A DNA stretch of 18,202 bases from a virus. Lineage: Duplodnaviria > Heunggongvirae > Uroviricota > Caudoviricetes. Position numbers and translations under genes: made by a program. Location of the stretch: positions 1-18,202 of IMG/VR virus record IMGVR_UViG_2617270976_000013; one strand, 5' to 3'. The notes under the pieces were generated by a model. That model did not search any database. It had not been told where the DNA came from and was given only the letters and a program-made list of their open reading frames with translations. Every line of letters begins with the position of its first letter. Within the stretch, counting starts at the first letter, position 1. Positions 1,459 through 18,202 of this stretch are shown here, piece by piece.

Positions 1459-2622
1459 TTACACATCACTAGTACCTTCCTTATTTTTTGACTGGGACAA
1501 ATTTGGGACCGATGGGTTCAGGATCGAGTCTATTTGCCGTGCATGTTCGGTAAGGTGATTAGGTGCGAGGTGAGCATATCGACGAACCATTTCGATAGAC
1601 TCCCAGCCTCCCATTTCCTGTAACACTGACAACGGGACTCCGGCTTGAACCAGCCAACTTGCCCAGGTGTGTCTCAAGTCGTGAAATCTGAAATCATCAA
1701 TACCTGCTCGTCTCAGCGCCGCTTTCCAGGCTGTGTTTGCGTCATACCGCATCTTCCTGACCGTTGGCGCTTTCGTTCCGTCTGGTTTGGTACAGCTTTC
1801 CTTGTACACAAATACCCAACGGTGATGATTCCCGATTTGTTTTTTCAATACGCGACATGCAGTATCATTCAGCGCAACGCCAATTGCGCGGTTTGATTTA
1901 CTCTCTTCCGGGTTTATCCATGCCACCCGGCGCTGCATATCTATTTGTTGCCATTCAAGGTTGATGATGTTCGAGCGTCTTAAGCCTGTTGCCAGTGCAA
2001 ATTCAACAACAGACTTTAATGGCTCCGGACATTCATCAATCAGCCTTTGTGCTTCATGGGGCTCCAGCCAGCGGATCCGTTTATTCTTTGGTTGAGGCAC
2101 TTTAATAATTGGTGCCTTATCCAGCATTTTCCATTCACGCTCTGCGGCTCTTAGTAGGGCCTTTATAAATGAAAGATGCGTAGCCTTCGTTGCAACGGAC
2201 GCTGGTTTTGGCGTGTATTCTGGAACAGGTTTCCCTTTTTTTCTGCATGCTTCTGCCCTGAGTTTCCAGTTTTCCTCATGACGCCGGTTCGTCATTTTCT
2301 GCATTGCTGAATAAATTTTTGATTCAGTAATGTCTCTTAGTTGCATTCCTGCGAAATGTTGAAGCCAGAATCCGATCCGGCTTTTGTCATCGTCCAGTGA
2401 TTTTTTATGTGCTTTCTCTTCAAGCCACCTGACACACGCTTCCTCGAACGTTATATCAGGTATTTCACCAAGTTTGCTGACCCGCCATGCTTCAGCCTTT
2501 AGCTTGTCATGGAGTTCTGTCGCCTGCCTTTTGTCCTTTGTTCCAAGAGACTGTTTAAATCTTTTACCGTTCGGCAATGTGAAACTGGCGTACCATATTT
2601 CACCTCTGCGGAAGAGTGACAT
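1459..2622 (-). CDS. int: tyrosine site-specific integrase, P22-type
   Basis: 387-aa ORF with C-terminal catalytic motifs ([10 protein letters not shown] ... RRYAHL) typical of phage tyrosine recombinases; SD GAGGA upstream of the ATG at 2622; adjacent to the tRNA. Confidence 0.95.
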
Positions 2623-12117: not shown

Positions 12118-13200
12118 TTAGAACTGGTAAACCATACCTACAGCAACGATATCATCGGTAGCAACGCCAGATGCTTTCGTGAAATCGCTCTTATCAATCA
12201 GGTTGATTTTGTAATCAACAAAAGTGGACATATTTTTGTTGAAGTAATAGGTTGCACCTACATCAATATATTCAACCAGGTCCTGATCACCCCACGCACC
12301 CAAGTCTTTTCCTTTAGATTGCAGGTAAGCAACGGACGGACGCAGACCGAAGTCGAACTGATATTGTGCAACTACTTCGAAGTTTTGTGCTTTGTTGGCA
12401 ATATGGTTATTACCAAAAACAGTCATGTTCTGGGTTTCAGAATAGGTGGTAGCCAGATAGATGTTGTTCGCATCATATTTCAGACCAGCTGCCCATACTT
12501 CAGCATTTTGACCAGATGCATTCAGGCTGTTGTTACCGTAGATAACCTGATTATTAGTGCGGTCAGATTTAGCATAGGTTGCACCTACACCGAATCCTTC
12601 ATACTCATAAGTAGTGGAGAAACCGAAACCATCACCATTAGCTTCAGTTACGTCAGTGCGGTCATTTTTACCCTGATACTGAGCAGCAAAGTTCAGACCA
12701 TCAACCAGACCAAAGAAGTCATTGTTACGATAAGTTGCAACACCTGTGGTGCGACCAGTCATGAATACATCTGTTTGGGTCCAGGTATCGCCACCGAATT
12801 CTGGCAGAACGTCGGTCCATGCACCAATATCGTATGCTACACCGTAGTTACGGCCATAATCGATGGAGCCGTAGTCACCGAATTTCAGGCCAGCGAAGGC
12901 AAGACGGGTTTTATCTTTGGAGGAACCTTGAGATTCAGCGCGGTTGCCTTTGAATTCATATTCCCACTGACCGAAACCAGTCAGTTGATCGTTGATTTGG
13001 GTTTCACCTTTGAAGCCAAGACGGGCATAAGTAGTATCACCATCATCTGCATCATTAGAGGAGAAGTAGTGCTTAGCATTAACTTTCCCGTACAGATCCA
13101 GCTTGTTACTGTCTTTATTATAAATTTCAGCTGCCTGAGCAGACATCGCCATCAGTACTGATGCAGTTACAGCAGAAATTGCCACTGTTAATTTTTTCAT
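12118..13200 (-). CDS. OmpC/NmpC-family outer-membrane porin (prophage moron)
   Basis: 360-aa product with signal peptide [23 protein letters not shown], Gly/Tyr/Asn-rich beta-barrel composition and C-terminal F (..VGMVYQF); lies between Q and the lysis genes in opposite orientation, as nmpC does in DLP12. Confidence 0.9.
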
Positions 13201-15705: not shown

Positions 15706-15808
15706 TACAAAGAATTCATTACTGGGTAGATGAAAATAGTTTCACGATGAATGGAGGAGGCTATGTCGGTGGCTTCTTCATTGGAGTATCCGCGAATGCC
15801 TGCAATGG

Positions 15809-15964
15809 ATGATTGATGACGGCGTGGTGTCCCGTATTGATCTGGATATCCGCCGCACCGGGATTAATGAACTGGGTAACAGTATCACTCTCTGGCGTCG
15901 TGACGGACCGGTAATGATTTCTTTTGATGATCTGTGGAGTGCGATAACGCATGGCGGACAGTGA
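15809..15964 (+). pseudogene. truncated ORF overlapping the J start, possibly the 3' remnant of an upstream baseplate gene
   Basis: Open frame from the stop at 15737 to 15964 encoding ...MIDDGVVSRIDLDIRRTGINELGNSITLWRRDGPVMISFDDLWSAITHGGQ; overlaps J by 14 nt as upstream baseplate genes often do; no SD or N-terminal domain. Confidence 0.3.
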
Positions 15965-16871
15965 ATTTCAGCGCCCGACGCTGGCAGAAAATATCAGTAT
16001 GCTCCGTAACGATTTATTCGCCAGGCTGGACGTCAGCGACACGCTCCGGCGCATGGATGAAGACGTGCGGGCAAAGGTGTATGCGGCGGCGCTGCATACG
16101 GTTTACGGTTACATCGATTATCTGGCAATGAACATGCTGCCTGACCTGTGCGATGAGTCCTGGCTGGCGCGACATGCTGCGATGAAACGGTGTCCGCGCA
16201 AGGGGGCCACGGCTGCCAGCGGGTATATGCGCTGGGAAGGTGTCAGCGATGGCCTGAAGGTGACTGCCGGGAGTGTTATTCAGCGCGATGACCTGGTTCA
16301 GTACACGGCAACTGCCGATGCAACCAGCTCCGGTGGTGTCCTGCGCGTGCCGATCGCCTGCTCAAGTGCAGGCGCGGTCGGTAACGCTGACGACGGTACG
16401 TCATTAATCCTGGTCACGCCGGTGAATGGTCTGCCGTCTTCCGGCGTGGCAGACACTCTGACAGGTGGATTTGATACTGAAGAGCTGGAAACGTGGCGCG
16501 CCCGCGTCATTGAGCGGTATTACTGGACGCCTCAGGGCGGGGCTGACGGGGACTATGTTGTCTGGGCTAAAGAAGTGCCAGGCATTACCCGTGCATGGAC
16601 ATACCGCCACTGGATGGGAACGGGGACTGTCGGTGTGATGATTGCCAGCAGTGACCTGATTAATCCCATTCCGGAAGAATCAACGGAAACGGCGGCAAGA
16701 CAACACATTGAGCCACTGGCCCCGGTGGCAGGCTCTGATTTGTATGTATTCAGGCCGGTGGCGCATAAAGTGGATTTTCATATCCGCGTGACGCCGGACA
16801 CACTGGAAATACGGGCTGCCATCACCGCCGAGTTGCGTTCGTTCCTGCTGCGTGATGGTTATCCGGAGTAA
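15951..16871 (+). CDS. baseplate assembly protein J-like (P2 gpJ family)
   Basis: 306-aa product MADSEFQRPTLAENISMLRNDLFARLDVSDTLRRMDEDVRAKVYAAALHTVYGYIDYLAMNMLPDL... recognised as the P2 J / e14 JayE baseplate family. Confidence 0.8.
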   Translation: MADSEFQRPTLAENISMLRNDLFARLDVSDTLRRMDEDVRAKVYAAALHTVYGYIDYLAMNMLPDLCDESWLARHAAMKRCPRKGATAASGYMRWEGVSDGLKVTAGSVIQRDDLVQYTATADATSSGGVLRVPIACSSAGAVGNADDGTSLILVTPVNGLPSSGVADTLTGGFDTEELETWRARVIERYYWTPQGGADGDYVVWAKEVPGITRAWTYRHWMGTGTVGVMIASSDLINPIPEESTETAARQHIEPLAPVAGSDLYVFRPVAHKVDFHIRVTPDTLEIRAAITAELRSFLLRDGYPE

Positions 16872-17095
16872 TCCATGCATCGTATAGATACGAAAGACAG
16901 CTATTAATTAATCAGGCCAACGAATACATGAACAGTAAACAATGGCCCGGTAAAACCGCTATTGGTCGTCTGAAAGGCGAGGAACTGGCGCAATATAATT
17001 CGTGGCTGGATTATCTGGACGCACTGGAGCTGGTTGATACCTCCAGTGTGCCAGATATTGAATGGCCTACGCCTCCGGCAGTTCAGGCCAGATGA
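16872..17095 (+). pseudogene. tail fibre assembly protein remnant (C-terminal part only)
   Basis: Frame open from the J stop encodes ...ERQLLINQANEYMNSKQWPGKTAIGRLKGEELAQYNSWLDYLDALELVDTSSVPDIEWPTPPAVQAR, the conserved C-terminal region of Tfa chaperones, with no N-terminal domain; converges on and overlaps the complete tfa on the other strand. Confidence 0.5.
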
Positions 17096-17669
17096 CATCA
17101 GGCGCGGTGCTGGTATCAGTTGCCGTCACCGCGTCAATGTAATCCAGCACAGCGTTAAGGCTGGTTGTTTCTGCCTGCGTCAGTTTACGTCCGGCCTGCA
17201 ATTTCAGCTGAATCAGACTGATTGAAGCCATTGCAGTATCAATCAGTGACTGGCGCTGTGCTTCTGCTGCATCTACTGCGGCGCTATGCTGTGCTTCGGT
17301 ATCCGTCACCCATTTCTCACCATCCCATTTATCGTATGGCGTTAACGGGGCGATAGTGGTTGTATTATCAGGGTAATCACCCGGAGCTGTGATTTCTTTT
17401 GACTCTCCCGTTTTGGTGCTATAGACGATTTCACCGCGATGGTCTGGCACATATTCCCATGAGTTAAAATTTGCAGAACGACAGATAGCATAACCCGCCT
17501 TATGTGTGCCAGGGGCATCTAAACAGGAATATGCAGGAATACCGACACCAATGGCAAGATATTCAGTTGATGCTGAAATATATTCCTGCGTCTCACTATC
17601 ATAGTTATAAACGGTAATATCCCCCGACTTTGTAGCAATAAGCTCACTATTTAATATTGCTTTATCCAT
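17067..17669 (-). CDS. tfa: tail fibre assembly protein (Tfa chaperone)
   Basis: 200-aa product ending ...QSLIDTAMASISLIQLKLQAGRKLTQAETTSLNAVLDYIDAVTATDTSTAPDVIWPELPEA, the characteristic Tfa C-terminus; start overlaps the stop of the upstream tail-fibre ORF (TAATG). Confidence 0.85.
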   Translation of the reverse strand: MDKAILNSELIATKSGDITVYNYDSETQEYISASTEYLAIGVGIPAYSCLDAPGTHKAGYAICRSANFNSWEYVPDHRGEIVYSTKTGESKEITAPGDYPDNTTTIAPLTPYDKWDGEKWVTDTEAQHSAAVDAAEAQRQSLIDTAMASISLIQLKLQAGRKLTQAETTSLNAVLDYIDAVTATDTSTAPDVIWPELPEA

Positions 17670-18202
17670 TATGCTGCTCTCACGATATAGTTAAATGCAA
17701 TGTTTCGAGGGCGATTCTCTGATGCTGTTGGTACAACCCTGGATGCATCAAAACTGAATCCTGTGTAAGGGGTATTTTTTGTTTCATATGTGCCTAGGTT
17801 ATTATAGATATTTCGCGTAGCTTGAGATGCTAAGGCAAAAGCACCAGTACCAGTCTGTAACCTGAAAGTTGCTGTATCAATGGTGCCTTTAACTTCATTT
17901 ATAAATCCTGTTATATTCCGAATGGTATCTCCCTGTGACGAAAGCAAGCTACGGTTAGTATCAATCCCTCTTCCATCATCCCAGCCACGAATAAACTCAC
18001 CGCGTAAATCAGGCAATTTATTTGTCGGGTAAACCTTTGCCAGTTCCGGGTATTCTTCAGCAGAAAAAGCCGCCCCGTTGCATTTCAGCCAGCCTGTTGG
18101 CGGAGTGGCGGAAGGCCACGGAACAGGCACGCCAACGGGTAATGCCGAACCTTCTCCCAAACCAACGTTTATGAAAATGCAGAAATAACGAGCAAATGGC
18201 AT
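17669..18202 (-). CDS. tail fibre protein, C-terminal (variable) segment with tail-collar domain
   Basis: 177-aa product containing LPDLRGEFIRGWDDGRGIDTNRSL (tail-collar signature); only 177 aa, so it cannot be a whole fibre; the ATG sits at the last bases of the window. Confidence 0.75.
   Translation of the reverse strand: MPFARYFCIFINVGLGEGSALPVGVPVPWPSATPPTGWLKCNGAAFSAEEYPELAKVYPTNKLPDLRGEFIRGWDDGRGIDTNRSLLSSQGDTIRNITGFINEVKGTIDTATFRLQTGTGAFALASQATRNIYNNLGTYETKNTPYTGFSFDASRVVPTASENRPRNIAFNYIVRAA
18152..18177. other. candidate DNA-invertase crossover site (hix/gix/pix-like)
   Basis: TTCTCCCAAACCAACGTTTATGAAAA: 26 bp, imperfect dyad around an AAACC-AA-CGTTT core; resembles hixL (TTCTTGAAAACCAAGGTTTTTGATAA) recalled from memory; lies within the 5' end of the tail-fibre segment. 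Confidence 0.5.

Follow-up and report, generated by a model that had tools for sequence, protein, structure and literature searches.

An orphan pixR crossover site in what appears to be a decayed e14/Mu G-type invertible tail-fibre cassette of a composite prophage

In the P segment of the Escherichia coli K-12 prophage e14, the serine invertase Pin binds as dimers to pixR and to pixL, which lies in inverted orientation. The sites are brought together in a synapse at a Fis-bound enhancer located in the first ~100 nt of pin, and Pin then cleaves each of them at its central AA and rejoins the strands after a 180-degree rotation of the subunits. Pin, Gin, Cin, and Hin classically cross-complement one another. 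A flip of the ~1.6–2.1 kb segment joins the constant fibre N-terminus in frame to one or the other C-terminal receptor-binding part, each of which precedes its own Tfa chaperone. The same architecture is seen in the G segment of phage Mu (Gin), the C segment of P1 (Cin), and the Hin/hix system of Salmonella. Two invertase dimers on inverted 26-bp sites assemble with the Fis-bound enhancer, and cleavage at the central dinucleotide is followed by strand exchange through subunit rotation (PMC3798978). For Hin, the Fis-bound enhancer is a 65-bp element within the invertase gene, at a distance of ~100 bp from the proximal site (PMC3798978). The published e14 sites, both taken from GenBank X01805, are TTCTCCCAAACC AA CGTTTATGAAAA for pixR (Table 3 of PMC3241671) and TTCTCCCAAACC AA GGTTTTCGAGAG for pixL (PMC3241671). 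In K-12, the stfE pseudogene has pixR at its 5' end, with the pinE start codon 55 nt downstream of the site, and pixL lies inverted inside stfP, 1.8 kb from pixR.

We analyzed an 18,202-nt stretch of viral DNA (hereafter, the window) that carries the 26-mer TTCTCCCAAACCAACGTTTATGAAAA at positions 18152–18177 on the plus strand, exactly as quoted in the original prediction, where it was read as a Hin/Gin/Pin-type crossover site. That reading was correct, and the site could be named: the 26-mer is base-for-base identical to the published e14 pixR (26/26 bases; PMC3241671) and to positions 1209605–1209630 of e14 in K-12 MG1655 (contig L011, 5606–5631). It consists of an inner half-site (18152–18163), the 2-bp exchange core AA (18164–18165), and an outer, pin-side half-site (18166–18177). 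Of 12 positions, 8 are the same in the two half-sites, TTCTCCCAAACC and TTTTCATAAACG, which flank the central AA, and the whole element, with its AA core, differs by a single mismatch from the 26-bp palindromic Din-family consensus TTCNNNNAAACN-NA-NGTTTNNNNGAA. When up to three mismatches were allowed, the 26-mer occurred only once in the window and had no match in 200 dinucleotide-preserving shuffles, and no second match to the consensus was found elsewhere in the window at the same tolerance. Scans with a 14-mer core (≤2 mismatches) and with the looser core AAACCNNNGTTT likewise returned nothing outside 18152–18177. On base identity, the element is a known site, pixR of e14, in a system that is already known, and it is best annotated as an orphan pixR.

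The genes around the site have the layout of an e14 P or Mu G segment, as had been proposed from the sequence, and the proposal agrees with the gene order in e14 and Mu; the placement of the site in the 5' end of a fibre C-terminal segment, beside convergent tfa genes, was also correct. A silent StfE-type variable C-terminal fibre segment occupies the minus strand at 17669–18163 and contains a Collar domain (Pfam Collar, E = 3.8e−15). The ORF at 17669–18202 (minus strand, 177 aa) that carries this phage tail Collar domain has pixR near its 5' end, at the junction where the StfE-type segment would meet a constant N-terminal part. The minus-strand translation of the site is …F-I-N-V-G-L-G-E…, with the exchange core in the Val codon, and the first 12–13 codons of the ORF come from DNA outside the invertible segment. 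Because the residues that precede the exchange core (MPFARYFCIFIN) are encoded in this outside DNA, the ATG at 18200–18202 is fortuitous and does not begin a real fibre N-terminus. The "phage tail protein" ORF at 17669–18202 is thus a variable cassette that is silent and has borrowed its start codon, and its annotation should be corrected. The cognate chaperone of the silent segment, a 200-aa tfaE-type tail-fibre assembly protein, is encoded at 17067–17669 on the minus strand (Pfam Caudo_TAP, E = 1.8e−32; annotated as tfaE in relatives). Converging on tfaE from the plus strand, and overlapping it, is the 3' remnant of the partner tfa gene (about 16896–17098, ~65 codons), which was identified with Caudo_TAP and by alignment to related contigs L004, L008, and L010, and which matches just profile positions 75–130 of the 131-position Caudo_TAP model.

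Compared with the e14 P segment and pinE (X01805), the window has an identical pixR, the same spacer to pin, and the same gene order, namely stf constant part, pixL, variable part, tfa / tfaE, StfE-type part, pixR, and pin, as far as it is retained. The tfaE and StfE-type genes are homologous to those of e14, with 92% DNA identity over the aligned parts, whereas the middle of the StfE-type segment is of a different sequence type. In Mu, the gene order also matches and the site likewise lies at an Sc/Sv-type fibre junction; the distance from the centre of gixR to the start of gin is 67.5 nt, the same as that from pixR to the pin stub described below, the N-termini of Gin and Pin are near-identical, and the baseplate genes upstream in the window are Mu-type (gp44–48). 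However, the central dinucleotide of the Mu gix site is GA (TC in the strand that was read) rather than AA, the half-sites differ, the DNA of the variable fibre parts is unrelated (no BLAST match), and the Mu system is intact. The P2-like phage pro483 (Peduovirus) has an identical pixR, an inverted partner site, and an intact invertase 30 nt beyond its StfE-type ORF, and shares 92% DNA identity with window positions 16893–18202; its tail module is P2-type, not Mu-type, and its cassette is intact and presumably functional.

Inversion at this site is recorded in the genomes of relatives. In 17 of the 17 intact relatives examined, pixR and an inverted pixL lie 1.6–2.1 kb apart, and whichever way the segment is oriented, pixL is found at the junction with the constant part and pixR on the pin side. 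The positions of the two sites are the same in both orientations because their inner halves are identical and their outer halves are fixed. When the post-inversion sequence was computed from the K-12 segment, the constant part was joined in frame to the StfE-type part (…TALENLGLGEGSALPVGVPVPW…NYIVRAA), and the fusion translated as …ALENLGLGEGSALPVG…, open to the stop codon. We also used as a BLAST query a 700-nt chimera in which the K-12 constant part was joined to window positions 17764–18163 in reverse complement. Four complete E. coli genomes, those of ECOR29, STEC1575, F467, and SW07091, contained the chimera as one unbroken match at 97.4–99.0% identity, and many more genomes matched it over the first 553–557 nt. 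In these four genomes, the gene order is ymfQ, fibre gene, tfaE, two minus-strand genes, and full-length pinE, and the fused fibre gene encodes 261 aa (a "phage tail protein" in the ECOR29 annotation). Window positions 17084–18170 align to the opposite strand of ECOR29 and positions 18151–18202 to the same strand; because the matches change strand within 18151–18170, the switch falls inside the 26-mer. In other words, both orientations of the segment are present among complete E. coli genomes, relatives have inverted with exchange inside the site, and the site marks the constant/variable fibre junction with the frame kept in both orientations.

The window ends before the invertase gene, and the DNA beyond position 18202 was read from an identical public contig. 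A lookup of the exact 177-aa protein returned several contigs, including L005 (GCA_000704325.1, JNQT01000010.1), which comes from a draft assembly and matches the final 10,534 bases of the window without a single mismatch. Positions 18178–18202 (plus strand), which align to the DNA upstream of K-12 pinE, are the first 25 nt of a 54-nt pixR–pin spacer in L005, and the window stops 29 nt short of the pin ATG. An invertase had been expected just beyond the window end; its position was as predicted, but the intact gene was not there. The pin frame opens 29 nt past 18202, and homology to K-12 pinE stops after nucleotide 123 (41 codons), so that only a 123-nt stub is left, at window-equivalent positions 18232–18354 on the reverse strand of L005. 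The stub ORF, MLIGYVRVSTNDQNTDLQRNALSCAGCELIFEDKISGTKSET* (42 codons), matches positions 2–48 of the 145-position Pfam Resolvase model and has no HTH_7 domain, and the adjacent DNA in L005 contains no full serine invertase gene with a Resolvase domain and a C-terminal HTH. In the stub, the serine in the conserved YVRVS motif close to the N-terminus, which we take by homology to be the active-site serine, is still present, but the DNA-binding domain and the remainder of the catalytic domain are missing.

Downstream of the stub, L005 contains a hairpin, which is followed on the opposite strand by a DUF262/GmrSD gene of 629 aa, the replacement having taken out pin from codon 42 on; in e14, the full-length pin is followed by mcrA. 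The same pixR, stub, and stub–DUF262/GmrSD junction occur in 283 complete E. coli genomes, including IHE3034, APEC O1, and GPEC1189, in which the stub is labelled by PGAP as "recombinase family protein, incomplete, missing C-terminus". The junctions of this type are 94.5–99.6% identical to that of the window lineage. The cargo in the slot downstream of pin differs among relatives: K-12 has mcrA and L005 has DUF262/GmrSD, strains 3036, STEC1575, and SW07091 each have a GIY-YIG protein, F467 has an AAA ATPase, and contigs L003 and L007 carry UmuDC-like genes and contig L009 a 1484-aa protein. Because several of these cargoes are defence genes, the slot looks like a variable defence/cargo hotspot.

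The recombinational enhancer probably survives within the stub. Nucleotides 25–41 (TCAACAAATGACCAGAA) and 73–80 (GCAGGATG) of the invertase gene are invariant among pin, gin, and the genes of pro483 and ZH177, synonymous positions included, and both blocks are kept in the L005 stub at window-equivalent positions 18256–18272 and 18304–18311 on the reverse strand. This invariance fits the Fis-site constraints expected of a recombinational enhancer, and the geometry in pin fits that of Hin. Judged from the Hin geometry and this conservation, the enhancer probably lies at pin nucleotides ~22–85, and thus within the 123 nt retained.

On the other side of the cassette, two deletions were mapped by comparing the window with L004, L008, and L010, which are 99.9–100% identical to it over the aligned stretches and carry the same pin stub. 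A 1082-bp deletion, with its junction at 16893–16895 and a 3-bp microhomology (AAA), removed the fibre gene from codon 8 on, that is, the constant part, pixL, and the expressed variable part, together with the 5' half of the partner tfa gene. The sole remainder of the constant fibre gene is its first seven codons (MHRIDTK; 16875–16895, plus strand), and the pixL of L004, L008, and L010 falls within the stretch that is missing from the window. A second, 713-bp deletion, with its junction at 16860–16865 and a 6-bp microhomology (TATCCG), took away the 3' end of the baseplate J gene along with almost the whole of ymfQ/gp48, and fused the shortened baseplate J gene to the last bases of ymfQ; the resulting truncated baseplate J/gp47 gene (15951–16871, plus strand; Pfam Baseplate_J) encodes 306 aa, compared with 352 aa in intact relatives. 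We considered whether the deletions were products of an invertase and rejected this, because neither junction is at a pix site and both have microhomologies of 3 bp or 6 bp; from their sequences, both look like ordinary illegitimate deletions. The 41-mer spanning the deletion junction had no match in a scan of genome contigs. When the window and 10 kb beyond it (L005), ~28 kb in all, were searched with the consensus at ≤3 mismatches, no second pix site was found, and therefore no inverted second site flanks the segment in the window or in the identical contig. The original prediction that a single site is visible, that the partner fibre gene has been deleted, and that the switch may consequently be locked was thus borne out, with pixL included in the 1082-bp deletion. 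In e14, pixL, the constant part, and the second variable part are present, whereas the window has lost all three. The E. coli genomes of the IHE3034, APEC O1, and GPEC1189 type still have pixL, the two variable parts, and a full baseplate/tail module, a set that the window has likewise lost. As a separate observation, the pixL of contigs L004, L006, L008, and L010 (12108–12133) has A for T at position 1 of the inner half (ATCTCCCAAACC…), a change that leaves the inner inverted repeat imperfect; the same lineage is also without pin.

We are therefore highly confident that the site is the pixR of a decayed, non-functional invertible tail-fibre cassette of the e14/Mu G type. What the window retains of the switch is pixR, the silent StfE-type part, and tfaE; pixL, the constant part, and the other variable part are gone. 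Inversion would be impossible in cis, because no invertase is left, and also in trans, because there is no partner site in the ~28 kb scanned. The StfE-type segment has neither an N-terminus nor a known means of expression, and we infer that the site has no remaining role. The locus would then be a clear example of the decay of a phase-variable host-range switch, by a route in which the invertase was truncated through replacement by a defence gene and one crossover site was then lost through a microhomology deletion.

Which of the parts is lost matters, as is seen in two relatives that still have both sites. The e14-type prophages of MS1679 (L018, 2894–4750) and APEC O2-211 (L022, 1368–3224) have the same pin stub and flanks that are 99.9–100% identical, yet the 1.86-kb pixL–pixR segment of one is inverted relative to the other, at 99.8% identity. 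This difference suggests a trans inversion by another Din-family invertase after pin was truncated, and inversion without a cis invertase has very probably happened in these relatives. Because the loss of pin alone does not freeze such switches, it is the deletion of pixL that has locked the relic in the window. In E. coli, this comparison separates the two losses: loss of the invertase alone does not freeze the switch, and loss of a site does.

The same pair of prophages is one argument for a different reading, in which the orphan pixR is still a live substrate that the Din-family invertase of another resident prophage recombines with a pix-like site elsewhere, such as one within another prophage's fibre gene, with large chromosomal inversions or deletions as the result. 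Such inversion despite the stub, the retention in the stub of the invariant nucleotides 25–41 and 73–80 (the presumed enhancer stretch), and the existence of pix-like sequences in fibre genes without an invertase, such as stf of HK97, are consistent with it. However, the 28 kb scanned contains no second site, the ~28 kb seen of the window's genome gives no sign of another invertase, no rearrangement in the window ends at the site, and invertases that depend on Fis and an enhancer are established to have a strong preference for inverted sites on the same supercoiled domain. We therefore consider it improbable that the site is still in use. Because MS1679 and APEC O2-211 inverted cleanly, activity in trans is plausible when both sites are present; the broader proposal that an orphan pixR and its stub may be used by invertases elsewhere, and that decayed switches are latent breakpoints for prophage-to-prophage inversion, is hardly more probable, though we rate it marginally higher.

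Returning to the site as the pixR of a decayed cassette, it has a counterpart outside invertible systems in HK97 (L020, 2638–2663), where the pixL-like 26-mer TTCTCCCAAACCAAGGTTTGTGCGAG lies in stf where the constant part meets the variable part, the stf–tfa–int region has no annotated invertase, and the variable part and tfa are 82.5% identical to window positions 17015–18173. The same fibre cassette therefore circulates in invertible and non-invertible contexts. This match could be taken to mean that the 26-mer is merely conserved fibre coding sequence (…NLGLGE…) and was never a recombination site, an alternative that had been named at the outset as part of what would overturn the original prediction. 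It applies to one part of the 26-mer and not to the other: the inner half and core are indeed found in HK97 stf, but HK97 shares only these, and the outer half and the following 25 nt are homologous to the pix–pin spacer of e14 and pro483, unlike fibre coding sequence. The outer half CGTTTATGAAAA and the spacer were found nowhere but on the side of an invertible segment that faces the invertase (e14, pro483, and every relative examined), a pin remnant lies at the expected distance, and relatives invert exactly at this site, so that the coding-only explanation is already refuted and we give it almost no credence. An assembly artefact, such as a collapse across inverted repeats that left a single site, has a negligible probability, since, even though the identical contig stems from a draft assembly, the same contig was recovered in two samples and both deletion junctions lie outside the pix repeats, away from the 15-bp inverted repeat at which a collapse should occur.

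The decayed cassette lies in a different genomic setting from that of e14. From the 417-aa first ORF, the window had been considered as a possible e14 at icd; this was rejected when a search of the whole window identified proA, a tRNA-Thr gene, and a lambdoid prophage. The window begins with proA (1–1254), followed by a tRNA-Thr (CGU) gene (1369–1444), which is thrW by its position beside proA, and an integrase gene (1459–2622, minus strand); this succession indicates a prophage integrated beside tRNA-Thr. An Rfam search of the window returned nothing besides the tRNA. The element thus lies between proA/thrW and the pao genes and is fused to a lambdoid prophage, whereas e14 is at icd. On its left, the Mu/e14-type tail remnant is bounded at 15787/15788, where it meets the lysis end of the lambdoid prophage. 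The composite prophage has lambdoid genes for a repressor, an O-like replication protein, RusA, Q, a porin, holin/lysozyme/Rz, and Bor, and there are no head or tail genes between the lambdoid part and the tail remnant. The porin gene (12118–13200, minus strand) encodes a 360-aa protein of the OmpC/NmpC type and is located between the Q antiterminator gene and the lysis genes.
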